The position numbers were made by a program, and so were the translations under genes. Positions 24,680 through 63,389 of a DNA stretch of 64,000 nt are shown here, one piece after another (the first letter of the stretch is position 1; each line of letters starts with the position of its first letter). Below the pieces are notes generated by a model, which did no database searches, had not been told where the DNA came from, and saw only the letters and a list, made by a program, of their open reading frames with translations. The DNA is from a virus. Its lineage: Duplodnaviria > Heunggongvirae > Uroviricota > Caudoviricetes. The stretch is taken from positions 34,232 to 98,231 of the IMG/VR virus record IMGVR_UViG_3300035655_000051. The stretch is one strand, 5' to 3'.

Positions 24680-24702
24680 ATCACGATTTTTTTATTTATT
24701 CT

Positions 24703-25377
24703 TTATGCAGCCGTAACGTTAAAAGTGTACGGATTTGCAACGATCATTTTCTTCAAAGGTGCGATATTGGTCGCGAAATTGATAAAGTTCGTAACCGCCA
24801 AACAACACACGAAACGAACAGTCGGGGCGAGACCTTGAACGATGCCACATGCAGAAACCGGAGTGCCAGCCTGCGCATCTTCATGAGAGAAGTTCATAGA
24901 ATTCCATAAATTCTCTCGGTCTTTTTCCTTGCTCCAATCCGCTGCCCAGCACTGTGCATCATGGAATCCAGTGCGGACATCAAACACGCCCTTGATGTTC
25001 GGGTTGTACTTGTTCGCTTCCATGAACTGCTTGCGAATTTCGATGTTGTCGACCGCGAGGAACACATAACCGCGAATCATCTCGCCCTGCCAACCATTCG
25101 GCTTCAGAACGATTTCATCTTTGGCATCAGGATTGATGGCACAGATAATATCGCGAACCGCCTCGACTTTTGGAGCTTCAATATTGTTGGCGAAGAACAT
25201 CTGGTTGACGATATTCTTGCTTTCAACCTCGTCCATATCCCACAGCGTGAAATTCTTCAGACCATACCGTGCGAGAAGTTCCGCCACGGTAGAGCCAACC
25301 GAACCACAACCAATAATGTGGATCTGGCCGCTGATATCATCGGGGTTGAATACCATTTCAAGCTTACTCAGATTCAT
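24703..25377 (-). CDS. E1-like (ThiF/MoeB-family) ubiquitin-activating-type enzyme
   Basis: IHIIGCGSVGSTVAELLARYG (GxGxxG Rossmann), DMDEVESKNIVNQ and KVEAVRDIICAINP match the ThiF/E1 adenylation-domain pattern. Confidence 0.75.
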   Translation of the reverse strand: MNLSKLEMVFNPDDISGQIHIIGCGSVGSTVAELLARYGLKNFTLWDMDEVESKNIVNQMFFANNIEAPKVEAVRDIICAINPDAKDEIVLKPNGWQGEMIRGYVFLAVDNIEIRKQFMEANKYNPNIKGVFDVRTGFHDAQCWAADWSKEKDRENLWNSMNFSHEDAQAGTPVSACGIVQGLAPTVRFVCCLAVTNFINFATNIAPLKKMIVANPYTFNVTAA

Positions 25378-25392
25378 TTTGTAGTCCTTTCT

Positions 25393-27793: not shown

Positions 27794-27936
27794 ATGTATT
27801 TCCTCCTATTTAATTTCAAAGCCCAGATACTGGACACATATAAGGCAGACTTTAACCGGCCTGCCAGCGGCTGCAGTGTTTAGAATATCGTTGTAACCAA
27901 TAACGAATTCAGCGGTTTATTTTCAAATTAGTGCGA

Positions 27937-28176
27937 TTAGTTCATACCAGTCGCATTGTCGTGCTTGGAGATGGAGGCCAGATACACCTCATCGCCGACG
28001 CCCAGCTCAGACAGCGGAGTGTTCAGCTGTGCCACCGTCAGAATGCAGCCATCCAGAGTGCTCTGGCCATTGGCGTAGTTCACGCCATGCTTTGCGAACA
28101 CGTCCTTCGGGGTCATGCTGGTAGCAACAACGTCCTCGATCTTGTCGTCATTAGTGGTAACCCAAATCTTAATCAT
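27937..28176 (-). CDS. small protein (79 aa), candidate beta-grasp/ubiquitin-like component
   Basis: MIKIWVTT... small protein at the head of the E1/JAB operon; ends ...NATGMN. Ubl assignment is speculative. Confidence 0.4.
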   Translation of the reverse strand: MIKIWVTTNDDKIEDVVATSMTPKDVFAKHGVNYANGQSTLDGCILTVAQLNTPLSELGVGDEVYLASISKHDNATGMN

Positions 28177-28273
28177 AGTATGTACTCCTTTTTAATTTGA
28201 AAAATATCGTTTACTCGTTAAAATGCCGGACGTATTGCGCAGGAACATCCGGCGTGGAACCTCGGCGGCGCTC

Positions 28274-28696
28274 TTACTCGGCGTCTGCGTCCTCACCATC
28301 GATAGTGATTGCAGCATTCATGGCAGCCTCATCAGCGTTGATGGACTCCATAGCGGCTGCGATCTGCTCCTCGATCTTGGTGCCGCGAACAATGGTCAGA
28401 CCAATCATGTCGCGAACCCACTCCTTGATCTCTGCCTCAGACTTCATGCCAGCAGGAACAGGACGGCTCAAAACGGCAACCTTATCGCCAGTGACTGCAT
28501 CCTGAGCAAAAGCCACGCCGAACTTGCTGATATCATCCTTAGAAGCAACAGCAATGGCGCTCACAAGCTTCTTCTCCTTGCCCTCGCCCTCATACAGCTT
28601 CAAAGCCTCGGGACGGAACTTCTCGACCTTCTTCAGGGTAGCGACATCGTATGCGGAAGTGACGAACAGGTTGTTGAACTTAACGATTGCTTTCAT
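28274..28696 (-). CDS. hypothetical protein (140 aa), probably highly expressed
   Basis: Start moved to the ATG after RBS AAAGGAGAAAAC (MKAIVKF...); acidic C-terminus. Confidence 0.55.
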   Translation of the reverse strand: MKAIVKFNNLFVTSAYDVATLKKVEKFRPEALKLYEGEGKEKKLVSAIAVASKDDISKFGVAFAQDAVTGDKVAVLSRPVPAGMKSEAEIKEWVRDMIGLTIVRGTKIEEQIAAAMESINADEAAMNAAITIDGEDADAE

Positions 28697-28741
28697 AATG
28701 TTTTCTCCTTTGTAATTAAAGATTGATATGTAAACGGGCAA

Positions 28742-28933: not shown

Positions 28934-29158
28934 TCACAGAAGTGATTTGCAGGTAAGTTTTACTGGACACGGCTCCCAAAATCTTTGCGGGCACCAAGTA
29001 ATCGTTGTTTCTCCACTTGTAAATGGGTCTAACATCTCTACAACTGGGTAAGCTCCATCAAATCTTACGATGCGCCCTCTTTTGTTGCGATTCACATCGT
29101 TTTCAGACACTTCATTGCCGATTCTAACTAATTGCCCAACATGTAAATCGTATTTCAT
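28934..29158 (-). CDS. CKSLL-tail family member 6 (ends ...CPVKLTCKSLL)
   Basis: Start taken at MKYDLHVGQLVRIGNE (ATGA overlap with the upstream gene); conserved tail. Confidence 0.6.
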   Translation of the reverse strand: MKYDLHVGQLVRIGNEVSENDVNRNKRGRIVRFDGAYPVVEMLDPFTSGETTITWCPQRFWEPCPVKLTCKSLL

Positions 29159-29412
29159 ACAACTGTCTCCTCTGTAATTGTCCATGTGTGACGATAACCA
29201 GCAGGAACGTCTGCAACACGCGCTCCCCAATCGTCAATATAGCTATCTCGCATACTTTCTGAATCATTTACGTCGTGTTCGTTCAAACACTCTAAGAACA
29301 AATCCTGCATCCTATCTGCCGCGTCTGCATGATTCGCATAAACGTGTTCAACACAAGCGAACGCCCATTCGTAAGAATTTTCGACACAGTCATGAAGAAC
29401 ATAAACCTTCAT
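29155..29412 (-). CDS. hypothetical protein (85 aa)
   Basis: Start at MKVYVLHD...; the long ORF-track version 29155..29679 overlaps a neighbour. Confidence 0.45.
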   Translation of the reverse strand: MKVYVLHDCVENSYEWAFACVEHVYANHADAADRMQDLFLECLNEHDVNDSESMRDSYIDDWGARVADVPAGYRHTWTITEETVV

Positions 29413-30378: not shown

Positions 30379-30464
30379 TGGTGCGCCCGGCGGGACTTGA
30401 ACCCGCACGCCATCTCTGGCAGAAGATCTTAAGTCTCCTGTGTCTGCGATTCCACCACGGGCGC
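30379..30464 (-). tRNA. tRNA-Leu (anticodon TAA), type II
   Basis: Acceptor GCGCCCG/CGGGCGC + A + CCA, anticodon loop CTTAAGA, long variable arm, T-arm GCGGGTTCAAGTCCCGC. Confidence 0.8.
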
Positions 30465-30772
30465 ATATAAAAGAAAATCAGAAACAGCCAACATTCGTTT
30501 TACGTTCCAGTTTACTGGCTACCTGAAGGGTATTCGTCCGACAGCTACTCGGCTTGCACCTTATTCCCCTTCCTATTTGGCTCAGTATCATTTACCGGTG
30601 TGATACCTGTCGTTTGCCAATGAACGGCCAATCCCCGATCTAGCTGGAACAACTGATTTTCTATTCCTCATTTAGTTAGAGACCTAATGAGTAAAGATGT
30701 CTACCTACACCGGTTGTGGACGGACTTACCCGGCTGGATTTCTATGTAGGAGTCTCAAACCGTCGCACACAA

Positions 30773-30847
30773 TGGAGCAGCGAATGGGAGTCGAACCCAC
30801 GCCATCGACTTGGAAGGACGATGTACTAGCCGTTATACGACCGCTGC
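30773..30847 (-). tRNA. tRNA (probable Gly, anticodon TCC; one anticodon-stem mismatch)
   Basis: Acceptor GCAGCGG/TCGCTGC + CCA, T-arm GTGGG-TTCGACT-CCCAT, anticodon loop CTTCCAA. Confidence 0.55.
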
Positions 30848-30966
30848 ATATAAACCCGGCTTACTAAGCCTTATTGCCACAGCATACGCCATGGAGCCGG
30901 GAATAACAAGGAAGAAAAGAGGTAAAGCCCGAATAGGAGGAATGAGACCCTATAAGCGGGCATCGG

Positions 30967-31035
30967 AGTGACTGGTTGGACTTGAACCAACGGCGCGCAG
31001 TTAGCTTGCTGCTCTACCATCTGAGCTACAGTCAC
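30967..31035 (-). tRNA. atypical short tRNA-like gene (68 nt, anticodon arm and variable loop about 4 nt too short)
   Basis: Perfect acceptor GTGACTG/CAGTCAC, canonical D-arm GCTCAGATGGTAGAGC and T-arm GTTGG-TTCAAGT-CCAAC. Only 19 nt remain for the anticodon arm plus variable loop, with a possible GCAG/CTGC stem and 8-nt loop. Confidence 0.4.
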
Positions 31036-31188
31036 ATAAAATACTCGGCTTACAAAGGTCAACTGCACTCTTTCAAGTGAGCCGAGAATAATTGACGAAG
31101 AAGTATAAAAATGAACTCCCCCTTTCGGGGTGGTATCTCGCACAGGCGCGGCCGGATCTGACCGCTAAAGATCCTACCCATACGAGAT

Positions 31189-31275
31189 TGGTGCTCACAA
31201 GAAGACTCGAACTTCCACGTCATAAAAGACAAGGGACCCTAAAACCCTCGCGGCTGCCAGTTTCGCCATGTGAGC
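31189..31275 (-). tRNA. tRNA-Leu (anticodon TAG), type II
   Basis: Acceptor GCTCACA/TGTGAGC + A + CCA, D-arm GGCGAAACTGGCAGCCGC, anticodon loop TTTAGGG, long variable arm, T-arm TGGAAGTTCGAGTCTTCT. Confidence 0.6.
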
Positions 31276-31412
31276 ATATCAAGAGCAGGGTTGCGTACCT
31301 GCTACGACTTGTTCAGTCACGGTTGTCTTATGTTTGGAGGGACACGAAAACAACTAATCCGATATAAAGGAGAAATATGAGAATACGAGGGACGCAATGA
31401 CCAAACGCCCCA

Positions 31413-31498
31413 TGGTGCAGCTAGTCGGATTTGAACCGACACGGATTTTCACCAGCAGATTTTGAGTCTGCCGCGCCTGCCTATTACGCCATAGCTGC
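31413..31498 (-). tRNA. tRNA-Leu (anticodon CAA), type II
   Basis: Acceptor GCAGCTA/TAGCTGC + A + CCA, anticodon stem GCAGA/TCTGC with loop CTCAAAA, long variable arm, T-arm CGGTTCAAATCCG. Confidence 0.8.
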
Positions 31499-32947: not shown

Positions 32948-33265
32948 TCACTCCTCTACCTTAAATACCATGTAGTACATGTGATTATCTTCACCGTTAT
33001 CAACCGCAGCTCCGATAGCATACTCGGGATACGGACACAAAGCACACCCACAGAAATCTGCATAAGAATCAGTGTTAATTCGCGTTGCGTTTTCATACCG
33101 TGCAGCTTCATCGCTTGGCATATTATCAAAGAAGCTCTGATAACTACGAGCAGCAAAATCAATCGCATCACTTCTCGACTGAAATGCTTTATCGAAACTT
33201 ACTGATTTGTAGATGTCAACTTTTTCGTTGGTATAATCGCTTACGACAATGTACATCTGAATCAC
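32948..33265 (-). CDS. hypothetical protein (105 aa)
   Basis: Protein-like ORF. Confidence 0.5.
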   Translation of the reverse strand: MIQMYIVVSDYTNEKVDIYKSVSFDKAFQSRSDAIDFAARSYQSFFDNMPSDEAARYENATRINTDSYADFCGCALCPYPEYAIGAAVDNGEDNHMYYMVFKVEE

Positions 33266-33933
33266 TCCTTCTCAAAGATATCAGTGTACTTGATGTACAG
33301 CTTACCGTTATGATAGTAGGTGTTGTATTCGCACTGGGTCACATACCACCAAGCCTTTTTATGCCCCGCCAGCAGGAGGTCGTGCAGATGATAAGTTTCT
33401 TTGTAGTTTTCATCTACATACTGCCGGAATGTAAGCTCGTCGATATCGTCGCTTTCTTGAACAATAGCTGAAATCTTGCTAACTTCGTATTCGTCCATAG
33501 AATCGTCCACAACGAATACCACTCGAACGATTTCTTTACCCCGGCGACAAATCTTGTAAAGCTCCTCTGCACAATGCAAATGATACACAACTCTATCAAA
33601 CTGTTCGAATGGAAACATTAAAATTCCATCATCATGATCAAAATCATAATAGCTCGTATGCAACTCAATCTTGCGACCAAGCTCTTTACACACCGAAAAG
33701 AATCCTGTCCACCACGCCTGATGTTCCCACCAGTGATAAAGTGGGTCACCGCCACCAGACACAGATACCCAATTGCAGTCATTACATTCGTTTTTCAGAA
33801 CATGCTCCAACTGCATATAAGAAGAATACTCGTCTGTCGGCGTCATCTTGAGCTTGTTATTGCGGACGATACACTCAGGGCAGCTGTAATGGCAACCAAA
33901 GTTCGTGATGATGCTGAGATATTTGTCATCCAT
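33262..33933 (-). CDS. radical SAM enzyme (small, activase/QueE-like)
   Basis: NFGCHYSCPECIVRNN gives the CxxxCxxC cluster-binding motif; SGGGDP glycine-rich SAM motif; 223 aa. Confidence 0.65.
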   Translation of the reverse strand: MDDKYLSIITNFGCHYSCPECIVRNNKLKMTPTDEYSSYMQLEHVLKNECNDCNWVSVSGGGDPLYHWWEHQAWWTGFFSVCKELGRKIELHTSYYDFDHDDGILMFPFEQFDRVVYHLHCAEELYKICRRGKEIVRVVFVVDDSMDEYEVSKISAIVQESDDIDELTFRQYVDENYKETYHLHDLLLAGHKKAWWYVTQCEYNTYYHNGKLYIKYTDIFEKE

Positions 33934-34218: not shown

Positions 34219-34296
34219 TACTAAAAAATGGTGGGCCAGGAGGGATTTGAACCCCCGATCAAGCAGTTATGAGCTGCCGGCTTTAACCAGACTAAG
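34219..34296 (-). tRNA. tRNA-Met/fMet (or lysidine-modified Ile) (anticodon CAT)
   Basis: Acceptor GGGCTAG/CTGGCCC + A + CCA, D-arm GCTTAGTCTGGTTAAAGC, anticodon stem GGCAG/CTGCT with loop CTCATAA, T-arm GGGGG-TTCAAAT-CCCTC. Confidence 0.8.
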
Positions 34297-34675
34297 CTAC
34301 TAGCCCAAGAGAGGAGGATTTAACCATGTAACGACACCAGCTGAGTACATTGCATTCGACTTACGAACTTTGCGAAATGCAACTTACAGCATCAGTGGAT
34401 ACAACCAAAGCGTCTTAACATCCTGTCCTTTGGTGTCCATCCTCAAAGACTGCCCTTTTAAATTCACTCTCCGCCAGCTTGGGCACCAACTGACTAGACC
34501 ACTTTCGCAGGTCATCCATTCGCCTACTCATGTTGTCACCAGACCTTCACTCCACGAGGAGCTACCCCGTCGCAGTCTGTTCGCACAATTTCGGTCAAAG
34601 CGTTATGAATGCATTGCATCCACGGTGGAATTGCGCCACCCCAGCGACCTCGCACTACACTACGCTGCCACATCG

Positions 34676-34725
34676 AACCTAGCTGGAACCCAACAGAATC
34701 GAACTGTTGTACGACCATCGGCTCC
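34676..34725 (-). ncRNA. tRNA-like minihelix (acceptor plus T-arm only)
   Basis: Minus strand GGAGCCG-ATGGTCGTAC-AACAG-TTCGATT-CTGTT-GGGTTCC-A: canonical T-arm and a 6/7-paired acceptor stem, but no D-arm or anticodon arm. Confidence 0.35.
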
Positions 34726-34829
34726 ATATAAAGCAGGGTTATCGTACCTGCTCGGCATTTTCAGCCACGCGGTTTCGCCTAATGGAAACCGTTTTTATAC
34801 ACACAATAGGCACAGGTAGAAAGGAAAGA

Positions 34830-34906
34830 CCCTGTACCATGGTCGAGCATGAGGGATTTGAACCCTCGACTTCTTGCGCCCAAAGCAAGCGCCCTTCCAA
34901 ACTGGG
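34830..34906 (-). tRNA. tRNA-Pro (anticodon TGG)
   Basis: Acceptor CGAGCAT/ATGCTCG + A + CCA, D-arm GCCCAGTTTGGAAGGGC, anticodon stem CTTGC/GCAAG with loop TTTGGGC, T-arm GAGGG-TTCAAAT-CCCTC. Confidence 0.8.
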
Positions 34907-34974
34907 CTAATGCTCGATATATGCCGGTCTTTCCCGGCTGTCAGTCCCAAGGACAATGGAGGAAAGTAGATAGC

Positions 34975-38528: not shown

Positions 38529-38822
38529 TCACCTCCCACAATAGAGAGTCGGCGCTCCCTCAGAAATCACTTCGATCGTTTTGATTGAGCCCGGCGAAAA
38601 ACTCCGCCCACGAAGCTCTTCCAGCTTCGACAGGAAATCGAGAAGCGTATGCCAGCTAGTTGGCTTGTACCTCTGTTTTGCTCCTACACTCAGAGTTGCT
38701 TGAAGTTCGCCAACGATATAATCATCAAGGAAGTCCAGTCGAGCACCCGCCTCGCCGTCTTCCCAGCGACTTGTTTCGCTATTCCACTTAGCGACGTCAT
38801 ATGTAACTTCGATCGATTTCAT
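38529..38822 (-). CDS. hypothetical protein (97 aa)
   Basis: Protein-like ORF. Confidence 0.45.
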   Translation of the reverse strand: MKSIEVTYDVAKWNSETSRWEDGEAGARLDFLDDYIVGELQATLSVGAKQRYKPTSWHTLLDFLSKLEELRGRSFSPGSIKTIEVISEGAPTLYCGR

Positions 38823-39190
38823 TATACTTCACCCCTTTCAATCAACATTCTCGCCGCTTCTTTCAGGATGCAGACGCCCTGTGCACAACTCGCCACATCG
38901 ATATCGTTTTGTTTATACAGCATCCAAATCCCGCCAAAGAAACATATCGGGTCGCCAGCAGTATAACCAGCTGCATTCTGCCATAAACCCAGACCAGTAT
39001 TATTGAACAGCTTGTCCTTCTTGTAGGCTCGCCGCAGCTCTTTCAGTGAAATAGGAATGTACTGTTTGACCTTATCCAGACCGCCCAGATAGTCGATATA
39101 ACGAGCATAAATTTCACGATGATCGAGTTCTCTGCCAGTCCGCTTATCGATAGTATTGCAAACGATGCCGCATGCCTGTTCGAGTGTCAC
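38822..39190 (-). CDS. hypothetical protein (122 aa)
   Basis: Protein-like ORF with overlapping stop/start. Confidence 0.5.
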   Translation of the reverse strand: MTLEQACGIVCNTIDKRTGRELDHREIYARYIDYLGGLDKVKQYIPISLKELRRAYKKDKLFNNTGLGLWQNAAGYTAGDPICFFGGIWMLYKQNDIDVASCAQGVCILKEAARMLIERGEV

Positions 39191-41628: not shown

Positions 41629-42539
41629 TCCAAACCAATGATATGCTTGTTGCTTTGTAGGAGCGCCTTCTGACCCGGCGACAAGATACAGTCAAGCAGC
41701 ACTCGCATTGCAGGCTTACCACCCTTCAAGATAACATCCTGATACTCGATCACGTGGCTTTTGATCCTTGGCGGGAGGGATTCAATCAACTTCGCGGTGT
41801 TCATGTTAATTTCCTCTTTTCTTTCTGCGTGTGTATCTTATTGTATTGGATGTGGTTACGTCTGCCCCGGTACCACCAGTCGCCCGGTTTCTGAAAGCTT
41901 CTTTACATACGTTTAACTTGTCCGTTCGAGAATCACCCAGACCCGCATTATAGCGAACCTTATGGGTCGATTACGTCTATTTGCGACTACCGCTAAACTC
42001 GTATGTATGATGCGAACTTATGCTCGGATGCGTCGAGCACATTGCAACGTCATTCTATTTAATTTGAAAATTTCAGTTAGATGTTAAAACAGTTTGTATC
42101 GCCATCCCATGAAAATTTTCTCATTGAAGTAAGACGCGACCCTTGCACCAAATGCTGCGCCCACCGATTGCGGGCTAAAAATTTTACAATTCAAGCTATA
42201 AACCCTCCTTTCGTTTAGTTTCGCTCACTTCAAGTAACACCCTCTAGTTTACTTTTATCATTGATTTATCAGCGTGGCCTTTGCGTCAAAATCAAATCAA
42301 ATTTCACTAAAGCGGTGGAGCGCCCTTCTGTTTATGCAACCGCTTCGATCGTGACGCTATGTGCCCCACTTGCGATTGCATTTCTGGGCTTGGGACCAGT
42401 ACCAGTTCTGCAGAACCAGTAGCCGCATTAAACCCCGGCAGCACAGCTGTTGCACTACCGGAGTTCCCTCTGCGAATATTTTTTGTTATGATATCATCCG
42501 CGACTGTGTTATGTATATAGGGAATTTCTGGGAATTGCT

Positions 42540-43289: not shown

Positions 43290-43910
43290 TTTCTGATCTC
43301 CTTAGATTCAGATTCTGATGAAATCGTCGATATAGTGGCGCTGCCCACCCAGATTGAAGTACGGACGCCCACTTGACGTATATTTGACTTGGCGTGTCCC
43401 ACAGTCCTCGATCGTATCGCCGTTGTTGATACCTACATGAATGCGCTCATCGTCACATTCGTAGATTTCATAACCGCCGAAATTCGAAATAGGATACACT
43501 ACGATTGCTTTAGGCGAGCTGGGTTGCTTTGCGACAGTAATTGGCTCGACTGTGAATTGTTCCACCATAGTTGGCACCTCCGTTGTATCTGCGGTCGTAA
43601 TTCATTCGAGCTCTCTTGCCGAACATCTTTCGACTGCTGCGTGTCATATCGTGATCGCCATGTACAATGAAGCCGTGACAGTTTGTGATAGTCGCCACCA
43701 GACGGCAGTTCGATTCAATACGCCGCCACATCACTTTCTTTGGCAACGAATCATACGAATGCTCGGCCGGAAATCCCATTCTTGCTCGCCGAAAAAAATC
43801 AGGCGTGAGTTCGTGGTCGTTAATTTTGACAATCCGAATGATTTTGATATCCTCATTCAGAACTACACCATAGAGGTCGCCCGTCATGGTTTCATAGATT
43901 TCGCTGACGA

Positions 43911-44246
43911 TCATACGACTGCGCCCCTTTCAATCATGCTTGCAAACAACTTGCGACCTGCTTTGCCCATATCTTCGGGATACAGAATCGGCTCACGACC
44001 ATTGATCTCGGCGATGATTTCTGCACCCATAATGTCGAGTTCGGCAAGAAATGCGGTCATGCTCAACCCGCCGTAATTTTCGGGGTTATACTCATCAGCA
44101 AACGGCCAGCCACTGTCGCAGGAGTCCATCACAGATTCGATACTTTCATCGCCACGTAGATGCACAACATTGATGAGATCGTCGCGATAGTAGACAAACA
44201 CAAAGATATCCCCCACATTGTCCTCGTAAAAGTAGTTGAAATACAT
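43911..44246 (-). CDS. hypothetical acidic protein (111 aa)
   Basis: Protein-like ORF. Confidence 0.45.
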   Translation of the reverse strand: MYFNYFYEDNVGDIFVFVYYRDDLINVVHLRGDESIESVMDSCDSGWPFADEYNPENYGGLSMTAFLAELDIMGAEIIAEINGREPILYPEDMGKAGRKLFASMIERGAVV

Positions 44247-44257
44247 CGCAACGCCTC

Positions 44258-44749
44258 TCAGTCTCGCTCGTATGCTTTTACGACGGTGTTCTTGTGGGTC
44301 ATGGTCATACGAGAAAGATTCGACTGAGCAACTCCCCTATCCAGCATCCGGATTGTTTCGTATGCCTTGCGGGCGATGTCCTCATGAGAGAATCGGGATA
44401 CGGTTTCGCTGCCATCCTTGTATCGGATTGCGACAGTCCACTTAGTACCGTCATCCACGATACGTCCGGCAGTGGGGCGCTCCTGCTGTGACGTTTTCTC
44501 CTGCTGTGCCTGCTGTGCTCTTGCGGCCTGCTCCTGCTTGCGCTGCTTTTCAGCCTCGGCACGGAGACGCTTTTCTTCTGCATCAATCATGACGCCGATT
44601 TCTTTGACGTCATTCATGACTTTGTTCGCCATTTCACGTGCCATCTCGCCAGTCTTTTCGCCAGTGAACTTGTCGGCAAGCCCATCATAAAGCCACCACT
44701 TGTCCATAGCGGCTGCCTGTGCATACTGAAGTACTTTCAATTGATTCAT
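44258..44749 (-). CDS. hypothetical protein with Gln/Ala/Glu-rich coiled-coil (163 aa)
   Basis: Low-complexity RAEAEKQRKQEQAARAQQAQQEK segment. Confidence 0.5.
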   Translation of the reverse strand: MNQLKVLQYAQAAAMDKWWLYDGLADKFTGEKTGEMAREMANKVMNDVKEIGVMIDAEEKRLRAEAEKQRKQEQAARAQQAQQEKTSQQERPTAGRIVDDGTKWTVAIRYKDGSETVSRFSHEDIARKAYETIRMLDRGVAQSNLSRMTMTHKNTVVKAYERD

Positions 44750-44885
44750 AATAGATTACCTCTCTTCTTTCTGGGACGTGCGATAGTCTCTTACAAGCCG
44801 TTCGTAGTCGTCAATATTGGAACGCCAGCCGCCTTCGTACAGAGCGGCCGCAATAGACAGCATATCAAATTTCATAGAATCCATT

Positions 44886-45440
44886 TCAGTCTACCTCGTC
44901 TTCGCTCCACAAGATGTCATCGATAGAATCATCTGAGAATTTGTCAGGTGTGCCGTTGCTATTCATAATGAGGACAACGTGCTCTCCCTTCTGTTTGGGG
45001 CAAAATCCGTTCCAGAACCATAAAGATCCGTAAGAATCTCGCACCCAGCAGCTGAGGCAGTTCGTGTTATCAGTCGCAATCCATCCATCAACAACGTAGT
45101 AGCCAAAGGGGCCAACGATGTCGCTTTCATAGTCACGCCACATAGGAGACACGGCAATGAGAACATCGTCGTAGATATTGTCTGGGGTTCCCACGTCTGA
45201 CATAGTCATCTCGACGTACTGCCCGACAACGTAGTCACAAACGTCGGCGGTGAAACACCACAACTCGCCAGCATCATCGAGTACTTGGTACTCGCCGGCG
45301 CTTTCGCTCCAGATCGTGCCGGATTGGACATAGGTCGTGGGCTCTGCCGCCTTGACAGGCATTGTGAAGATTGTGGCTGCGAGCATGACGCTTGCGATAA
45401 CGACCGCCATACCCCGAACGGATTCCGAAATTGATTTCAT
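44886..45440 (-). CDS. secreted protein (signal peptide), 184 aa
   Basis: N-terminal signal MKSISESVRGMAVVIASVMLAATIFTMPVKAAEP. Confidence 0.5.
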   Translation of the reverse strand: MKSISESVRGMAVVIASVMLAATIFTMPVKAAEPTTYVQSGTIWSESAGEYQVLDDAGELWCFTADVCDYVVGQYVEMTMSDVGTPDNIYDDVLIAVSPMWRDYESDIVGPFGYYVVDGWIATDNTNCLSCWVRDSYGSLWFWNGFCPKQKGEHVVLIMNSNGTPDKFSDDSIDDILWSEDEVD

Positions 45441-52408: not shown

Positions 52409-53181
52409 ATATGACTGACATTATTTTATCTGTCGAAAACAATGAAGCAGTGGTATCCAGCCGCCAGATTGCTGAAAATTTTGGAAAACGGCATAACGAT
52501 GTGATGGAAGCAATTCGTAGTATTTTAGCTACGGAAAATTCCGTAACTAAATTTTTTCACGAGTCAACGTTTGAATATAGAGGCCAAACTTTTCCGATGT
52601 ATTTAATGAATCGTGACGGATTTAGTTTACTCGTTATGGGGTTTACTGGTAAATCAGCGCTGGAATGGAAAGTCAAATACATCACAGCATTCAATGAGAT
52701 GGAGAAGCAGCTTACCCAACCAAAGCAGTTATCCAAAACAGAGATTTTATCTCAGGCACTTTTGATTGCTCATGAAGAACTTGAAGAAAGCAAAAAGCAA
52801 ATCACAGCCTTAACGGCAAAAAATGCAGAGCTTATCCCAAAAGCAGAATTCGCAGACGCAATTAGCGCGTCGAAGGCAAGTGTTCTTATTGGTAGTTTCG
52901 CTATTGTGCTAAAGCAGGATGGTTGCGACATTGGCCAAAACCGCCTGTTCAGATATTTACGTGAAAACGGATATCTCATCTCGCAAAAGGGCGATAGATA
53001 CAACACGCCAACACAATGGGCTATGGAGATGGGATTGTTCGAGGTTGAGACTACCCTTTTTACCACAGCTTATGGTAATGCAAAAATTTCTTACACCACA
53101 CGAATCACTCCAAAAGGACAGCAACATCTCATTAATAAACTTGTAAAAAAGTGCGATTCGAATTTGATGGATGTCGTATGA
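52405..53181 (+). CDS. phage regulatory protein Rha N-domain fused to antirepressor KilA-C-type C-domain
   Basis: N-terminus ...VVSSRQIAENFGKRHNDVMEAIRSI... (Rha pattern); C-terminal half ...GSFAIVLKQDGCDIGQNRLFRYLRENGYLISQ... (ANT/KilA-C pattern). Confidence 0.65.
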   Translation: MNMTDIILSVENNEAVVSSRQIAENFGKRHNDVMEAIRSILATENSVTKFFHESTFEYRGQTFPMYLMNRDGFSLLVMGFTGKSALEWKVKYITAFNEMEKQLTQPKQLSKTEILSQALLIAHEELEESKKQITALTAKNAELIPKAEFADAISASKASVLIGSFAIVLKQDGCDIGQNRLFRYLRENGYLISQKGDRYNTPTQWAMEMGLFEVETTLFTTAYGNAKISYTTRITPKGQQHLINKLVKKCDSNLMDVV

Positions 53182-53663
53182 TAGAGGCTTTACAAAATAT
53201 GGAAAAATTTATCGCCCCACGCGGCAGTGGCCGCACCTATCAAATATGTAAATACGCAATTGAAAATGACTGTGACATTATTGTGCCAACGATAAATCAG
53301 TTTAACTACATTGTTGACACAATACAAAAAATATGTTCTGCCTCTGATGGAGAATGGATTTATTGTGGCATTGATAAGCCTGCAGCCACGGTTAACGTTG
53401 CAGTATGGAATGGTCAGCGGCAAATAAAAATTTATGACGCTGGAATTCTTACTATTGCATATTTTATGCATAGTACAAAACCAGTTGTGATCGATGATAT
53501 TGATAAATGTATGGACTACATTGTTGGTAATCGCATGATAGCCGCCTGCTCTATAGCTACGTATGACCCGTCTGATGTCGCATTTCACCCTGAAATCACA
53601 GATGCAGATGATACGGCCATAGGAAGACCAACGCTGCAACTAACCTGTAGGAGTTTGCTATGA
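53151..53663 (+). CDS. CKSLL-tail family member 7 (170 aa, ends ...LQLTCRSLL)
   Basis: Unrelated N-terminal region with the conserved C-terminal tail. Confidence 0.6.
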   Translation: MRFEFDGCRMIEALQNMEKFIAPRGSGRTYQICKYAIENDCDIIVPTINQFNYIVDTIQKICSASDGEWIYCGIDKPAATVNVAVWNGQRQIKIYDAGILTIAYFMHSTKPVVIDDIDKCMDYIVGNRMIAACSIATYDPSDVAFHPEITDADDTAIGRPTLQLTCRSLL

Positions 53664-54004
53664 CAACAGATATTTTTGGAATGACTAATTACAAGAAGAA
53701 TGAGAAAGAAATATTAGAACTCGCAAGTAAGGAAATCTGTGAACAGCTTAGCGAAGAGCTTAATAAAAAAATAGATTCTATTGTAATTCATGTCGATGTA
53801 GACCGCAGATACATACATTATGATCCTCCGTCATCTTTTATGATAAATTCAATGGAGATCTTTAAAGTTGATATCATGTCCGGGTCGCATTTGGAGACAA
53901 TCGAGGGGAAGGCTGCAGAAAGTATTTATAAGCGATATCTTGAATTGGTTGGCAAATATGCGTTGCAATTCAAAAAACCGTTTACCTGTAAGAGCCTATT
54001 ATAA
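53660..54004 (+). CDS. CKSLL-tail family member 8 (114 aa, ends ...FKKPFTCKSLL)
   Basis: Conserved tail; ATGA overlap with the upstream gene. Confidence 0.6.
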   Translation: MTTDIFGMTNYKKNEKEILELASKEICEQLSEELNKKIDSIVIHVDVDRRYIHYDPPSSFMINSMEIFKVDIMSGSHLETIEGKAAESIYKRYLELVGKYALQFKKPFTCKSLL

Positions 54005-54030
54005 ACTCAACAGTTGGAGGACCCCATGGT

Positions 54031-54294
54031 ATGACACGAGAAGAAATTATAAAAGAAGCGATGGGTTACGCACAAATTGGACGCTTCGGTTACTACAAAG
54101 GAACTTACGATGAGATGTTAGCTGTTTTAAAATGTTTTGCTGATACTGATGCAGAATACGTGAATTTTCAAGATATGCGATGGCACTTAGATGAGAAAAA
54201 CGGAAGACTCTATTATGAACGCTTGTTTGATCAATGGGAGCCAAAACCAACGCCATGGTATCAAAAGCCATTTACCTGTAGGAGTTTATTATGA
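54031..54294 (+). CDS. CKSLL-tail family member 9 (87 aa, ends ...YQKPFTCRSLL)
   Basis: Conserved tail. Confidence 0.6.
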   Translation: MTREEIIKEAMGYAQIGRFGYYKGTYDEMLAVLKCFADTDAEYVNFQDMRWHLDEKNGRLYYERLFDQWEPKPTPWYQKPFTCRSLL

Positions 54295-54503
54295 ATCACA
54301 CTGTAACTGCCAGAGTCGCAATGCTGACTTCTGCAAATTATGACGCCAAAAACGGAATCTATGTCCCATTAAGTGACAACAACATGGTGTGGGTCATGCC
54401 ATTCAAATCGTATCGCGATCTTAGAGCGTGGTATTTAAGAGCAAACGATGGTTCAAAAATATTTCATTAGATATGGTTTGGACCCGGGTATACATATAAT
54501 TCC

Positions 54504-54710
54504 ATGAGCGATGTAGCGACACGACTTGCGAAAGAGTTTGATCAGCTTAATGATGTGGATTATTGCAGACTTGCCAATAAAGATGGCATTTTAGATTTGT
54601 TCCATCCTATTGAACTTGACTATACATGGACTTGGGACCATGTCGTAAAAATCAAAGCACCATGGTATGAACGGAATAAAAAGAATCTAGTATGCCACAG
54701 TTTATTATAA
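54504..54710 (+). CDS. CKSLL-tail family member 10 (68 aa, ends ...NKKNLVCHSLL)
   Basis: Variant tail (His in place of Lys/Arg). Confidence 0.55.
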   Translation: MSDVATRLAKEFDQLNDVDYCRLANKDGILDLFHPIELDYTWTWDHVVKIKAPWYERNKKNLVCHSLL

Positions 54711-54741
54711 GTGCGCAGCAGCGCCGCAGAGGGAACTCGCA

Positions 54742-55152
54742 ATGAGAGTATTATTCGTAAAACCAGAAAACTACCAAGCAGTATGTAACTGGTATGACAG
54801 ATTAAAAGAAGTAAAAAATCATCCAAAGACAACTGTAATATGTCAGAGCCCAGAAGAGTTCCGCGCACAGTTCGACAAAGATAAATTTGGAGTCAGATAT
54901 ACTACTTTCTATTTCGATGAAGAATTTGGAATGATCAACACTGTAAAATGTTTCAAAGAATTTGTGAGACTATATGGCGATGAGGATGCGCGTTATATAT
55001 CTGCAACAATGAAAATGAGAACCATCAACATTGACCGATTATTATGGGCTGGTGATTTCAATGTATTTAAAGGATTTTGTATTGAGCCCGACTGTATTGA
55101 TGATGTTATCAGAAGCGCGAAAAGACCGTTGTCATGTAAGAGTCTGTTGTAA
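54742..55152 (+). CDS. CKSLL-tail family member 11 (136 aa, ends ...AKRPLSCKSLL)
   Basis: Conserved tail. Confidence 0.6.
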   Translation: MRVLFVKPENYQAVCNWYDRLKEVKNHPKTTVICQSPEEFRAQFDKDKFGVRYTTFYFDEEFGMINTVKCFKEFVRLYGDEDARYISATMKMRTINIDRLLWAGDFNVFKGFCIEPDCIDDVIRSAKRPLSCKSLL

Positions 55153-55167
55153 TAGGAGATTAACAAA

Positions 55168-55389
55168 ATGGATGTTATTGACTTAGATCTTATTGGGAAT
55201 CCAGAGAACCCTTATCGTTATTGGATATCAAACGATTTAGCAAAAAATGCAACCATTACTATTCCAAAAGAACAGCCTGTAAAAGAATCAGCATGGGATA
55301 GAATAAAAACCATAGAAGAACAAATCGCAGATATTTACGACCAATTAGATAAACTAAAGAAGCCACTTCGGTGCAAATCGCTTCTATAA
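55168..55389 (+). CDS. CKSLL-tail family member 12 (73 aa, ends ...LKKPLRCKSLL)
   Basis: Conserved tail. Confidence 0.6.
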   Translation: MDVIDLDLIGNPENPYRYWISNDLAKNATITIPKEQPVKESAWDRIKTIEEQIADIYDQLDKLKKPLRCKSLL

Positions 55390-55679
55390 GGAGGATTATT
55401 ATGAAAGAAGAAGAATTTTCAAAACAGGATATTTTTAATATTGGATTCGCCGTAGTTGATGCGGTGCGTAATTATAGTGTCACAGTAGATAATATTATTG
55501 ACGCTATTCAAGTATACGCGGACTGGCAGGAAGTTATTGGCGATGCTTCACTGTATGACACGCTTTGGATGGAAGATTATACGCCTATGTCCCCTTCTTT
55601 GACCCGATATTTATATCATAAGCTATATGGGTTGGAAGAATACGACAACGACAGCGAGGAGGATTACGGCGATGAGTGA
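55371..55679 (+). CDS. hypothetical acidic protein (102 aa)
   Basis: Protein-like ORF. Confidence 0.45.
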   Translation: MQIASIRRIIMKEEEFSKQDIFNIGFAVVDAVRNYSVTVDNIIDAIQVYADWQEVIGDASLYDTLWMEDYTPMSPSLTRYLYHKLYGLEEYDNDSEEDYGDE

Positions 55680-55848
55680 CCGCAAGCGAGATAAGAATTC
55701 TAAGAGTACATATATGAGAGCAGCCCGCAAACAACGCATGATTGAAAACCAGTTTATGCAGGAGATTGAAAAAGCACAGGAAGCTCCGGCGTCTAAATAT
55801 AATAAAAAGTCCCACAAGCAACGCCGCGAGTGGGATGATGAAGAGTAA
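55675..55848 (+). CDS. small basic protein (57 aa)
   Basis: Start at MSDRKRDKN (ATGA overlap with the upstream gene). Confidence 0.4.
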   Translation, partial: SDRKRDKNSKSTYMRAARKQRMIENQFMQEIEKAQEAPASKYNKKSHKQRREWDDEE

Positions 55849-56217: not shown

Positions 56218-58767
56218 ATGTTTTCTCCTCCATTGTATAGCGTTTTAAAGTTTCCTCTTAACTATATTATTACCCATGATTATAATTTCAAACTAACTGA
56301 CGAAGAACTTATTCATTTCACTGTGTTACAGGGAGATAATATGATGTTCCGCCAAATTCGTATGATATCTATGAATGACGATAAGTTTCAGAAATTTGTT
56401 GTTTTTGTTGACGCTACAGGTGGATACAACAAACCAAAAGCTCTTGAACGCCTTGTAAAACACGGATTTAAAATCAATGGAGAAACGTATTTGTTTAGTG
56501 AACGCAGTGCAAGTATGGTTCGTCAAAGCATGCTCAGCTTTGTTGAGCGTCATATTGCACCAGAACTTGATAGGCGAATTAGTATGGGGCTTGATTTTTC
56601 TGAAACGCCAACTGTTCTTAGCAAATATTATGCTTATCGTGGTTTGAATCTGTCGTCTGCTTTTTGCTTACCGGAATGGGAACCTAAAATTTGTATCGTT
56701 GATGATTACGAGAACACAATTAAAGACCAAATGGTTGAATATCTATACGATAAAACAACAGAATTCATTGATAAAGCGGGTAACAAAAGAAGTTGGACAC
56801 AAAAAGATGTTGCTGTAAAGAAAGCCGATATCACTATTAACTGCTTCGATGGTGCAGGTATTTGTCACCCAGAAATCATGCGCCAGATTGAACGCAAAAT
56901 AAATACTGATGAACATATTAACAGTTGTATTATTCGCGCACCATATATCAAAGGATGCATGCACGAGATTGATTATGAATCATTTTATGCGGAGCGTGGC
57001 GTTACAAAAATCAAAGATATTTGGGGGCAAGAATATGATGTAACTCCCGGCAGCGAACCACTTATGATTCTTACCGTCAGCCTTTATAAAGGATATAAAT
57101 ATTTCAAGAAAGACGGCACATATAAAGACTGGGAGAGATATTGGGAATGGTTTCGTAAAACAAAAAGCTGCTTTGCTATTGCGAAATGGAATTATAGTGC
57201 TGAACGAGAAAATTTAACCACAAAATGCAATTATCAAATTTTGCAAAATATAGACCTAGAATTCGATGATTTCAAACACTTCGCTGACATGTCTGTAGAT
57301 TTTTATGAAAAGGTCACAAGTGATGATATTTTTTACACTGATTGTTTCCTTGGATTAATGGCTGACGATGTCAATCCTTTGAATCACTATATTGCTGCAT
57401 TAGCACGTAATCAAGAAATGATTCACGAGCCATGCGTTAAAGAGTACGTCCATTCCTTACTTGATAAAACTCGTGATGGATTTAAATGTGGGAAACTCTG
57501 GATGAATGCAACATTTAAATTTTGGGTACCAGATCTTGTTGCTCTAATGGAATGGGCTGGCGGGCTCCCTGTTGTTGGAGCGTTAAAGGCTGGTGAGATT
57601 TATACTTTTGATCGTCGTGGCGTTGCACTTGGAGACCGCATTTGTGAACGAAACCCCCATATATCAAGATCAGAGCACCTGCTTGTTAGCGCCGTCGATA
57701 ATGAATTGACTCAAAAATATTTTCATGGACTTGTAAATTGTTGTTTCACTTCGATTTATGACATTAACGCACCTCGGCTCAATGGTTCCGATTTTGACGG
57801 CGACCTCGTCCTTGTTATTGATGAACCTTCCATGATTCCTGGAGTACATACAGATATTCCTATTACGTTGGATCTTGAGGACAAAAAGACTGCTCTTGCT
57901 GAAACTGATACCCTTGACAATAAATTTGCTTGTACTCTTCGTGGTCTTAAAAGTCAAATTGGCGAGATTTCAAATTTAAGCACTGTCTATCAAAACAAAG
58001 TTCCTAAGACTGAAAAGACAAAACAAGAATATTTGAAATATGTTTCTCTTTTGTCCGTCGCAAATGGAAAGGAAATCGATAGAGCTAAAACTGGCTGCGG
58101 ATATAAGATTCCTAGAAATATACAGAAATATGGTACTGGTCCTAAGAGTACGCCATATTTTATGAAATATGCAGGCCCTTACTATGCACGTTTACATAAT
58201 CTTAGCAAGGCACACAGCAATATGAATTTACTCTGTATGAGCCTCGAGCGCTGGGAGCGTGGAGTCCGTTGGCATAAAGAGCCTGCTGGTAGTTTTGATT
58301 GGCACATAATGTACGATTCGGAAATTGGCTATGATCAGGCTGTATTTAATGAGATTGAAGCAATCTTTCTGGACTTTAATAAATATCGCAAGCAGCAGTT
58401 GGAGCTTGAAAAGAAAGCCAAAAATTGGAAACTTTATCGTAAAGAGCTTGAAGGTATCATGACGAAAGAAGAAGCAAAGACCTATGAAACCAACTGGCAA
58501 GCAATTTATAACGTGTATCGTAATAAGTGCAAGCTGATCTGTCCTGATGTTCGTGAGTTGGCTAATATTCTAGTCGTGTTGTGCTATGAAAAATATCCCA
58601 ACAAATTTAAAAAGTTCCTATGGCACATGGCTGGTGCTGGTGTGGTTGAAAATATCAAACCAGTTCCTGTGCAGTTACCAATTCACGACCCGAACGGCGA
58701 GTATGAATATCTTGGTCAGAGATACAGTCTGGCTGAGCCGAGAACCTATGAAGCGAGGGTGAAGTAA
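56218..58767 (+). CDS. large protein with the DFDGD metal-binding motif: candidate YonO-like single-subunit (two-barrel) DNA-dependent RNA polymerase
   Basis: 849 aa. NGSDFDGDLVLVIDEP recalls the universally conserved NADFDGD catalytic loop of multisubunit RNAP beta-prime and of the SPbeta prophage RNAP YonO. Size is similar to YonO. Confidence 0.45.
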   Translation: MFSPPLYSVLKFPLNYIITHDYNFKLTDEELIHFTVLQGDNMMFRQIRMISMNDDKFQKFVVFVDATGGYNKPKALERLVKHGFKINGETYLFSERSASMVRQSMLSFVERHIAPELDRRISMGLDFSETPTVLSKYYAYRGLNLSSAFCLPEWEPKICIVDDYENTIKDQMVEYLYDKTTEFIDKAGNKRSWTQKDVAVKKADITINCFDGAGICHPEIMRQIERKINTDEHINSCIIRAPYIKGCMHEIDYESFYAERGVTKIKDIWGQEYDVTPGSEPLMILTVSLYKGYKYFKKDGTYKDWERYWEWFRKTKSCFAIAKWNYSAERENLTTKCNYQILQNIDLEFDDFKHFADMSVDFYEKVTSDDIFYTDCFLGLMADDVNPLNHYIAALARNQEMIHEPCVKEYVHSLLDKTRDGFKCGKLWMNATFKFWVPDLVALMEWAGGLPVVGALKAGEIYTFDRRGVALGDRICERNPHISRSEHLLVSAVDNELTQKYFHGLVNCCFTSIYDINAPRLNGSDFDGDLVLVIDEPSMIPGVHTDIPITLDLEDKKTALAETDTLDNKFACTLRGLKSQIGEISNLSTVYQNKVPKTEKTKQEYLKYVSLLSVANGKEIDRAKTGCGYKIPRNIQKYGTGPKSTPYFMKYAGPYYARLHNLSKAHSNMNLLCMSLERWERGVRWHKEPAGSFDWHIMYDSEIGYDQAVFNEIEAIFLDFNKYRKQQLELEKKAKNWKLYRKELEGIMTKEEAKTYETNWQAIYNVYRNKCKLICPDVRELANILVVLCYEKYPNKFKKFLWHMAGAGVVENIKPVPVQLPIHDPNGEYEYLGQRYSLAEPRTYEARVK

Positions 58768-62149: not shown

Positions 62150-62410
62150 ATGGAAGAAAAATTTCATAAAGATTTAGGAGGCGATTACTTCTACTGCTAT
62201 TCCCGCCGTTGTGCATTCTTTATTCGTGCAATGGGAATTTTCTATGAAGAGATTGGCGAGCATCCAACTACGGGCTCTGTATATACAAAGTTCCATAAAA
62301 CAAAAAAGCTCAATGAAATTTTAAAGCTATGGGATGATATCAAGTATCGCTTCGACAATATGTCAGATGACGGAACGGTGGTGAAGGACTATGGCCAGAA
62401 CTGCCGTTGA
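62150..62410 (+). CDS. hypothetical protein (86 aa)
   Basis: Protein-like ORF. Confidence 0.45.
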   Translation: MEEKFHKDLGGDYFYCYSRRCAFFIRAMGIFYEEIGEHPTTGSVYTKFHKTKKLNEILKLWDDIKYRFDNMSDDGTVVKDYGQNCR

Positions 62411-63389
62411 AAAGAAACCGCCACGCATTAAGGTTCCTGCCTCATGGAGTGGTGGCAAATGTATGTGCTGCGGAAAGATCTATGATGTGCGCAAAGGAAA
62501 TTTCTCAAAGACGCAAAGTCAGTGGTTTATGGGAAACGATGGATATCTGCCGTGGTGCAATGAATGCAAAGAAGAAATGTTTAACTTCTATGTAAAGAAA
62601 TACGGAGACGAAAACGAAGCAATTAAGCGATTAGCTATGCTGTTTGATATGTTTTATTGTGATGGGCTTCTTGAGGCAGCAGAGCACTCTACTCCCGGTT
62701 CTCCAAAAATCAATACATACATGGGACGGCTCAATATGCGCCAGCACGCTGGAAAGTCTTATGACGATACATTGGATCAGGAGAAGAAGGACGCGCTGGC
62801 TGCCGGTCGTACTGGTAACACAAAAGTCACTCAGAAGATGATTAGATTCTGGGGTGATGGATTTGATGAACGTGATTATTTATTCCTTGAGGATCATTAT
62901 CAAAATTGGATCACTCGTCAAGAATGTAAAACTGTTTCACAGGAGACTTTGTTTAAGCAAATTGCAAAAGCAGAACTCAACTCTGAAAAAGCATACGCGA
63001 CTGGTGATACAAAGAAAATTAAAGAAGCAACTGACAATTTATTGAACTTGATGACTTCTGCCAATGTTAAACCTAATCAGACAAATGATAATGCATTAGC
63101 AGAATCAAACACATTTGGAACACTGATTCAAAAATGGGAAGAAGAAGAACCAATCCCAGAACCAGCACCCGAATGGCAAGATGTAGACGGTATCGGCAAG
63201 TATTTTAGGGTGTGGGTATTAGGTACTCTATTGAAGATGTTTAATCTGCCTAATCCTTATCAAGAAGAGTTTGATAAAGAAATGGAAAGATACACAGCTC
63301 ATAAACCATCGACTACTGAAGATGACTCGGCTGACGGCAGTTTACGAGAGACGATTTTCGGTCCTGGCGAAGGCGGTGGTTCGTCTTGA
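62391..63389 (+). CDS. hypothetical protein (332 aa); possible terminase small subunit by position
   Basis: Lies immediately upstream of the terminase large-subunit gene. N-terminal Zn-ribbon-like CMCCGK...CNECKEE and a Gly-rich C-terminus. TerS assignment is positional only. Confidence 0.35.
   Translation: MARTAVEKKPPRIKVPASWSGGKCMCCGKIYDVRKGNFSKTQSQWFMGNDGYLPWCNECKEEMFNFYVKKYGDENEAIKRLAMLFDMFYCDGLLEAAEHSTPGSPKINTYMGRLNMRQHAGKSYDDTLDQEKKDALAAGRTGNTKVTQKMIRFWGDGFDERDYLFLEDHYQNWITRQECKTVSQETLFKQIAKAELNSEKAYATGDTKKIKEATDNLLNLMTSANVKPNQTNDNALAESNTFGTLIQKWEEEEPIPEPAPEWQDVDGIGKYFRVWVLGTLLKMFNLPNPYQEEFDKEMERYTAHKPSTTEDDSADGSLRETIFGPGEGGGSS

Follow-up and report, generated by a model that had tools for sequence, protein, structure and literature searches.

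Short peptides that give otherwise unrelated proteins a common destination or fate are a known kind of transferable targeting or docking device, of which ssrA-type degrons, PDZ ligands, the capsid-targeting sequence of phage T4, encapsulin cargo peptides and sliding-clamp-binding motifs are described examples. Non-polar C-terminal degrons are read by Tsp, FtsH or ClpXP. In the cyclic-oligonucleotide-based anti-phage signalling system (CBASS), Cap2 and Cap3, an E1-E2 fusion and a JAB peptidase, act on the C-terminal tail of a cGAS-like protein that is not ubiquitin-like (Ubl). Docking motifs of the short linear kind are familiar from eukaryotes and eukaryotic viruses but, to our knowledge, are barely charted in phages. 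Here we analyze a C-terminal tail ending in Cys-x-Ser-Leu-Leu that is shared by 12 proteins encoded on a stretch of 64,000 nucleotides (positions 34,232 to 98,231 of the IMG/VR record IMGVR_UViG_3300035655_000051). This whole stretch is referred to as the window, and positions are given in its coordinates. It belongs to a phage of about 150 kilobases (kb) from human-gut metagenomes that is SPβ-like by its sequence, and matching contigs, of about 85-150 kb, are present in IMG/VR, ENA and Logan.

The tail resembles ssrA-type degrons in that it is a short C-terminal tag, predicted to be disordered, with a non-polar end and a free carboxylate, and in being transferable: Leu-Leu-COOH is found on at least 19 unrelated bodies, and the likeness in degron function is one of analogy. 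By the same analogy, its two-part logic, an invariant end plus an upstream part that may be read by an adaptor, would correspond to that of ssrA with SspB and ClpX. Unlike ssrA, the tag is encoded in the genes instead of being added by transfer-messenger RNA, it ends in S-L-L and not in L-A-A, and it occurs in three lineage-specific forms, here called dialects, on a dozen or more proteins. The residue pattern of class I PDZ ligands ([S/T]-x-Φ-COOH, with Φ being hydrophobic) is also present, with Ser at position -3 and Leu at -1 (counted from the C-terminus) and a free carboxylate, and the alternating hydrophobic residues are consistent with β-strand addition. However, position P-1, which is usually free in PDZ ligands, is an invariant Leu in the tails, and bacterial PDZ proteases are mostly located outside the cytoplasm, whereas the tail proteins, as judged by eye, appear to lack signal peptides. 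The tail appears to fail the defining features of each specific known family that could be compared here. What seems to be new is that a dozen or more genes per genome carry it, that it is restricted to early-region genes, and that its three dialects evolve in concert.

The CKSLL-type tail in the window

Using the list of open reading frames (ORFs) and a six-frame pattern search, we found 12 ORFs in the window in which C[KRH]SLL directly precedes the stop codon, six on each strand; all six on the plus strand lie within positions 53151-55389. Based on the amino-acid frequencies of the window, the chance of such an end is 9e-7 per ORF end. With a couple of thousand six-frame ORFs, which is our own estimate, about 0.002 tail ORFs would be expected, against the 12 observed. 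The shared tail on 12 proteins, which had been pointed out in a preliminary description of this DNA, is confirmed, and the observation is stronger than was described there.

The first plus-strand tail gene (53199-53663) encodes a 154-amino-acid (aa) protein composed of a RecA-like/ASCE P-loop body, a disordered linker of about 30 aa and the tail ...LQLTCRSLL. It had been described as a 170-aa protein starting at the GTG at 53151, but gene calls on matching public contigs start at 53199, which is probably the true start. The second gene (53660-54004; 114 aa, ...KPFTCKSLL) belongs to a family present in 72 loci, with a tail of dialect A or B (see below) according to the genome, and is followed by the third (54031-54294; 87 aa, ...KPFTCRSLL). 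The fourth (54291-54710; ...KNLVCHSLL) encodes 139 aa in relatives and is split in the window by an in-frame TAA at 54468-54470, where relatives have a Gln codon, into ORFs of 59 and 68 aa. The same split is present in the public contig L204, and the gene is intact in the public contig L205; the 68-aa ORF (54504-54710), earlier taken for a gene of its own, is the 3' part of this 139-aa gene. The fifth gene (54742-55152; 136 aa, ...RPLSCKSLL) has orthologues with A- or B-type tails, and the sixth (55168-55389; 73 aa, ...KPLRCKSLL) encodes a coiled-coil-like body.

On the minus strand, five of the six tail proteins are paralogs that share 27-45% identity in BLASTP comparisons and are SH3-like. 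They are encoded at 17934-18206 (Mib/Herc2- and YorP-like, ...KCLVCRSLL), by three tandem genes at 20559-20816, 20826-21110 and 21127-21399, and at 22233-22496 (...KPLTCKSLL). The body of the sixth ORF (28934-29230; ...VKLTCKSLL), whose start is uncertain, is at most distantly related to these SH3-like proteins.

When the last 10 residues were removed, BLASTP detected no similarity among the plus-strand bodies, nor between the plus- and minus-strand sets, in agreement with what had been proposed, and no conserved N-terminal motif was seen in the tail proteins. Searches against Pfam, PHROGs and NCBIfam returned only PHROG families of unknown function, and a PDB sequence search with the 170-aa form gave no match. 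A full-text literature search for 'CKSLL' yielded nothing relevant, and we found no published account of shared C-terminal tags on phage early proteins or in gut phages with a YonO-type RNA polymerase. The confident folds predicted by AlphaFold for two of the bodies differ, one being an SH3-like barrel and the other a RecA-like ATPase domain. In both models the tail lies on a flexible extension, with a predicted local distance difference test (pLDDT) score of 53 in one and below 50 in the other, and it is thus predicted to be intrinsically disordered on two unrelated folds.

The codons of the tails vary synonymously within the window (AGT, AGC, TCG and TCA for Ser; TTA, CTA, TTG, CTT and CTG for Leu). 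Among 382 unique tail 3' ends, Ser is encoded by AGY in 172 and by TCN in 210, the full set of six codons is used for Ser as well as for Leu, and the nucleotide sequence is not conserved. Because the Ser and Leu codons differ synonymously, the conservation resides in the peptide and not in the DNA; selection acts on the tail at the peptide level. The differences between orthologues in the bodies of the tail genes fall mostly at third codon positions, and this excess indicates that the bodies are real coding sequence. Unrelated translated bodies, the use of all Ser and Leu codons and two different folds bear out the earlier view that the tail is a transferable modular tag and not the product of simple paralog duplication.

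Many tail genes end in TTATGA or CTATGA, where the stop codon shares bases with the start codon of the following gene. At the two Leu positions of the tail, TTA and CTA are enriched (24-34% and 18-21%, against 13% and 8% for window genes), in part because of these stop-start overlaps, and CTC is nearly missing there. The window also contains 11-12 tRNA genes on the minus strand (179-1764, 30379-31498 and 34229-34916), including three for tRNA-Leu (UAA, UAG and CAA).

Three dialects in related phages

From related contigs we took five tiles of 20 kb: the surroundings of the RNA polymerase (RNAP) gene and of DUF8224, the head genes, the mid-window region and the left flank. In these tiles, related SPβ-like gut phages have 926 tail ORFs on 95 contigs. 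Clustering of 866 tail ORFs, taken from the first two tiles, a few extra loci and the window, resulted in at least 19 unrelated body families. A profile of the SH3-like paralogs retrieved 232 homologs, and 119 of the 120 of those listed end in C-x-SLL, the single non-matching homolog being truncated; x is K or R in 118 of these ends and T in one. The 20-kb head tile, the left/replication tile and the 10 kb flanking the window at each end are all free of tail ORFs.

Three dialects can be distinguished. Dialect A, to which the window belongs, is basic and has the pattern K(-9) [PQSN] [LF](-7) x C(-5) [KRH](-4) S L L. Dialect B is acidic and Cys-rich, N(-9) E(-8) C(-7) [YVIC] C(-5) [ED or variable] S L L, and dialect C is characterized by Phe, [ND] G Φ(-7) x F(-5) x S L L. 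S-L-L followed by the stop is invariant in the three sets, an invariance that is partly built in by the pattern [CF].SLL with which they were picked, whereas positions -9 to -6 and -4 vary by phage lineage. Homologues that were found via their bodies mostly end in S-L-L too, with a few SML, NLL, NLI and SLI ends. The motif [KR]P[LF]xC[KRH]SLL given in the preliminary description is too narrow for the family, the core of which is [C/F]-x-S-L-L-COOH.

The dialect is uniform within a genome. The plus- and minus-strand clusters, about 35 kb apart, have the same dialect in 42/42 contigs having both, and a single tail out of 926 deviates. Orthologous bodies, in turn, bear different dialects in different phages. 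For instance, the 154-aa protein has one conserved body that ends in ...QLTCRSLL, ...TECVCASLL or ...PAAFRSLL, and nucleotide homology between the genes encoding it stops at the linker. Phe replaces Cys at -5 in 12/12 tails of the dialect C lineage, and Cys(-7) of dialect B corresponds to Leu or Phe in dialect A. Because Cys is exchanged for Phe at -5 or for Leu/Phe at -7, thiol chemistry is not required, and the Cys residues of the tail appear to behave as small hydrophobic residues.

The genes located between 10.2 and 20.3 kb that are common to both lineages (NAD-salvage, AAA ATPase and DUF8224) contain no perfect A-versus-B column, but the tail gene at 17934-18206, which lies between two such column-free genes, has seven dialect-discriminating columns. 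PhoH, RNAP and most head genes contain no discriminating columns either. Judged from these alignments, the genes between the tail clusters reassort freely. Since the intervening genes lack discriminating columns and the tail gene has seven, the uniformity of the dialect is not just a matter of linkage.

In the five tail families tested, those of the 136-aa protein and of four SH3-like paralogs, the dialect B proteins exceed their dialect A counterparts in acidity by about 5-8 charge units, only about 4 of which are explained by the tail itself. An opposite shift, of about +11, is seen in the YonG-like protein (62391-63389), which is not strictly dialect-linked. In addition, 23 more distant loci (e.g. 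L096 and L120) share DUF8224 (82-93% identity) and its 143-aa neighbour; the 20 kb around DUF8224 in these loci are without tail genes, SH3-like paralogs, the E1/JAB module described below and the NAD block.

A proposed docking peptide and the competing explanations

The presence of a single dialect per genome, changing in concert and on unrelated bodies, argues for one co-evolving receptor. We hold, with slightly more belief than doubt, that the tail serves as a portable docking peptide at the C-terminus, recognised by such a receptor. The pattern Φ(-7)-x-[C/F](-5)-x-S-L-L-COOH is carried by at least 19 unrelated early-region proteins of this clade of SPβ-like gut phages, and its three dialects have changed in concert. 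According to this model, all tails of one genome would be matched to one trans-acting receptor, which either the phage or its host could encode. The hydrophobic character of positions -7, -5 and -1, together with Ser at -3 and the obligatory free carboxylate, suggests that the tail docks in a groove. It would bind as an extended strand, an invariant pocket taking up S-L-L and the terminal carboxylate (cf. PDZ class I, ClpX and TPR). As S-L-L-COOH is invariant and the upstream half is variable, recognition may be two-part, in which case positions -9 to -4 would recognise a region that varies, on this receptor or on an adaptor.

The sequence data strongly suggest a common partner or fate for the tail proteins. 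This part of the earlier proposal is supported by the single dialect per genome and by the swapping of dialects on orthologous bodies; its suggestion of a PDZ protease or a ClpX-like adaptor found no counterpart among the families listed (see below). As for the outcome, our leading guess, a tentative one that we doubt more than we believe, is that the tail is a two-part C-degron or adaptor tag. The whole early set, possibly with host targets gripped by it, would then be handed to one unfoldase or protease, giving these proteins a common, timed fate.

Candidate receptors were sought by three-lineage column patterns, by perfect A-versus-B association over the five tiles and by complementary-charge tests. 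Dialect-linked islands are located at 9.0-10.0, 20.5-29, 38.8-39.2 and 43.3-45.4 kb, at 55672-55848, and, with weaker linkage, at the YonB-like gene and its neighbour; the functions of all genes in them are unknown. The small genes at 9046-10027, 38822-39190, 43308-45440 and 55672-55848 have 11-42% discriminating columns, and most of their neighbours do not discriminate. Among these small genes, whose alleles track the dialect perfectly, are those encoding a 133-aa helix-turn-helix protein and a very basic 58-aa protein (55672-55848) that ends in WDDEE. These genes could encode partners of the tail system or could merely be old lineage markers.

Several points weigh against a docking peptide with a single receptor, and against the degron outcome. 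No receptor was found in a search confined to phage sequence, which covered the window and its flanks, all but about 77 kb of the ~150-kb genome. PDZ, protease and ClpX-like families are absent among the Pfam families listed (25 of 31) for 85 window proteins, and the PDZ family was also not seen in the annotated flanks. None of the dialect-linked proteins shows charge changes complementary to the basic (A) versus acidic (B) tails, and the SH3 bodies, considered as a possible receptor, were rejected because they contain no dialect-specific residues. The placing of the tail genes in an early or middle class is derived from gene order and from SPβ. The degron outcome is argued by analogy, from the non-polar C-terminus, the probable early genes and the two-part pattern that resembles ssrA/SspB/ClpX, and there is no obvious need for lineage dialects in a degron of general use in the host.

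An alternative that we consider unlikely is that the tail docks proteins inside the procapsid, on capsid, scaffold or portal, for packaging and injection; co-packaging, which had been listed among the possible fates, is a weak candidate. Many small and diverse anti-defence-type proteins with one tag would fit such virion loading, and the internal proteins of T4 are generally known to be alike in this respect. As in the T4 capsid-targeting sequence and in encapsulin cargo peptides, one short peptide would bring unrelated proteins to a common destination, and the encapsulin peptide is likewise C-terminal and disordered, with a small hydrophobic core. Moreover, the discriminating columns of the head tile concentrate in the YonB-like 331-aa protein (15 columns), which by gene order and size is possibly the major capsid protein, and in the next gene, of 177 aa (16-17 columns), several neighbours having none; compared with the A reference, the YonB-like protein shows at least 91% identity on A contigs and about 81-85% on B or C contigs. 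However, these differences are conservative and without charge complementarity, the tail genes lie in early-type runs that include the phage RNAP gene and not in the late structural block, there are zero tail ORFs in 20 kb of head genes, and the tails show no sign of a cleavage site. The T4 sequence is located at the N-terminus, from which the prohead protease removes it, whereas the tail described here is C-terminal, and encapsulin cargo is encoded beside the HK97-fold shell gene, whereas the tail genes are at least ~14 kb away from the YonB-like head gene.

We give somewhat less credence to β-strand pairing of the tails with one another, possibly with a metal bound via Cys, or to their binding to a hub of the host, for example the sliding clamp. 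Genome-wide uniformity of the dialect would also be expected of a motif that recognises itself or of a hub specific to the host, and whole-protein charge moves with the dialect. Clamp-binding motifs (QL[SD]LF, QLxLxL and the gp45-binding tails of T4) similarly dock unrelated proteins on a hub by means of a short peptide, and S-L-L resembles the clamp-motif end S-L-[FL] (e.g. QMSLL in E. coli MutS). This end is all that matches, however: Gln is absent at motif position 1, where the tails have C or F, position 2 is not hydrophobic, and the tails, unlike the clamp motif, have lineage dialects. No clamp gene was seen among the replication-module genes scanned. Dialect C lacks Cys, so that metal bridging cannot be general, and nine-residue peptides rarely self-assemble specifically.

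The minus-strand tail cluster adjoins a conserved module on the same strand (22837-28741), which is also found in the distant phages L208-L210. In order, it comprises genes for proteins of 155 aa, 79 aa (Ubl-like), 505 aa and 298 aa (with a JAMM motif), and then for a ThiF-like E1, a retron-type reverse transcriptase (RT), a 112-aa protein and a recombinase-like protein. The ThiF-like E1 is located at 24703-25377 and the JAB-like 298-aa protein at 25393-26289; the motif of the latter, E...HSH-x7-S-x2-D, was read by eye, and searches of Pfam, NCBIfam and PDB sequences gave no match. The Ubl-like protein (27937-28176) ends in K-x-D-N-A plus 0-4 residues, and exactly at D-N-A in distant phages, and the 505-aa protein contains the invariant motifs RAC...QPHID...CEW. 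By its sequence, the module has the look of a ubiquitin-like system of the phage to which an RT is linked. RNA folding of the spacer between ThiF and RT, examined as a test for a retron RNA, was not significant (z = -1.5).

The tail could be a handle for this module: the E1 would adenylate the C-terminal Leu, leading to conjugation that the JAB protein reverses, or the tail would read the phage Ubl non-covalently. We regard this as distinctly unlikely. Besides the position of the E1, JAMM-motif and Ubl-like genes next to the tail cluster, it is favoured by the dialect linkage of the block at 20.5-29 kb (9-36% discriminating columns, compared with none in the adjoining DUF8224), and by the general knowledge that such enzymes bind extended C-terminal tails. 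The arrangement of E1-like and JAB-like genes beside proteins with an exposed C-terminal tail is also that of CBASS Cap2/Cap3. The E1/JAB pair is present in 14/14 A, 34/37 B and 1/1 C full-length tail loci, but it also occurs without tails: the ~111-kb phages L208-L210 have the Ubl-505aa-JAB-ThiF-RT genes and no tail ORF in the surrounding 17-19 kb, which weakens the idea that the tail depends on E1/JAB as its partner. The C-terminal residue of known E1 substrates is Gly or another small residue, in contrast to the bulky Leu-Leu of the tails, and the module's own Ubl, with its K-x-D-N-A end, is a likelier substrate. Further, half of the tail genes are ~30 kb away, unlike in CBASS, the A1/A2/B column patterns are roughly star-like without charge complementarity, and the Ubl gains acidic residues in the lineage with acidic tails.

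Chemical modification of the tail is very improbable, be it a radical-SAM crosslink as in ribosomally synthesised and post-translationally modified peptides (RiPPs), CaaX-type lipidation or a five-residue thiolactone resembling an autoinducing peptide. Cys at -5 would give the ring size of staphylococcal autoinducing peptides, dialect B is Cys-rich, and a gene for a radical-SAM-like protein is present on the minus strand (33262-33933; 223 aa, CX3CX2C). This protein matches phrog_17662, a family of unknown function, and resembles NrdG and cyclophane-forming maturases only weakly; it has eight dialect-discriminating columns (3.6%) and no charge pattern that points to it. The RiPP-like modified Cys core, put forward earlier as a weaker possibility, is argued against by Phe at -5 in all 12 dialect C tails, also on orthologous bodies, and by the Leu/Phe of dialect A that matches Cys(-7) of dialect B. 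The bodies are folded domains of 70-170 aa and not leader peptides, Ser is the only invariant reactive residue, and the nearest radical-SAM-like gene is at least 4 kb away. A CaaX box was rejected because Cys is at -5 and not at -4, is followed by a charged residue and is Phe in dialect C, and an AgrD-type thiolactone precursor because Cys is replaceable by Phe, the bodies are folded and nothing follows the five residues.

Finally, a DNA or RNA element (terminator, promoter or recombination site) or a recent duplication of a 3' fragment with untranslated upstream parts, the latter named in the preliminary description as what would refute it, would suit the regular placement at gene ends and the many overlaps with the next start codon, but has a negligible probability and is excluded by the use of all six Ser and six Leu codons without nucleotide conservation, by the third-position excess in the bodies, by the two confident folds and by terminator-like sites that, in a promoter/terminator scan, were not in excess over shuffled sequence.

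Genomic setting and implications

The plus-strand tail cluster is part of a tightly packed run that includes the PhoH, anti-repressor and RNAP genes. The RNAP (56218-58767) is of the YonO type, with a fold like that of RNA-dependent RNA polymerases, and its gene is followed by YonJ-, YonG-, terminase-, portal-, YonD-, YonB-, YomW- and YomV-like genes; the replication module lies to the left of the window. The minus-strand cluster is situated amid the recombinase-like gene, the retron-type RT, the ThiF-like E1, DUF8224 and the NAD-salvage block, and repressor-like and anti-defence-like genes also surround the tail genes. In this setting, the tail genes would be early or middle genes. The nearest relatives of DUF8224 in reference genomes are about 55% identical and are mostly from Lachnospiraceae and other Firmicutes, and the host is probably a gut Firmicute.

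The NAD-salvage block (11796-15109, minus strand) encodes isochorismatase/nicotinamidase-like, NAD synthase, macro-domain and NAMPT proteins that are 89-98% conserved across dialects, and is reminiscent of phage routes for the regeneration of NAD+. At 2454-4010 on the minus strand, a protein of about 355 aa is encoded that shows a weak match to the N-terminal domain of MrpR, the master repressor of SPβ, and its gene adjoins a PemK/MazF-like toxin gene. A match to the Twister-P5 ribozyme (42384-42474, minus strand; 46.5 bits in Rfam, with a gathering score of 37.6) is located in the ORF-poor region from 41.6 to 43.3 kb. In the replication module, a 372-aa protein without a Pfam match (L368:11107-12225) ends in ...EEDDGIDTLF, which resembles the acidic C-terminal tip of the bacterial single-stranded DNA-binding protein, another C-terminal docking peptide, in the same phage.

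Thus, a single C-terminal label is present on roughly a tenth of the genes of the window, and its copies are kept in step as the label drifts. It may represent an undescribed address-label system in which one hub serves 12-20 early proteins. The version of greatest interest, in our opinion unlikely, is that of viral degraders, whose bodies would each grip a different host target, e.g. a defence or housekeeping protein, while the tail delivers both to a protease; if true, it would be the bacterial-virus counterpart of the hijacking of degradation machinery by eukaryotic viruses. The receptor, if found, would provide a transferable tag in three variants, maybe not cross-reacting, for use in gut Firmicutes. 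It would also give a shared fate to a set of proteins of unknown function and would show whether phages use degron-like or cargo-like addressing at this scale.

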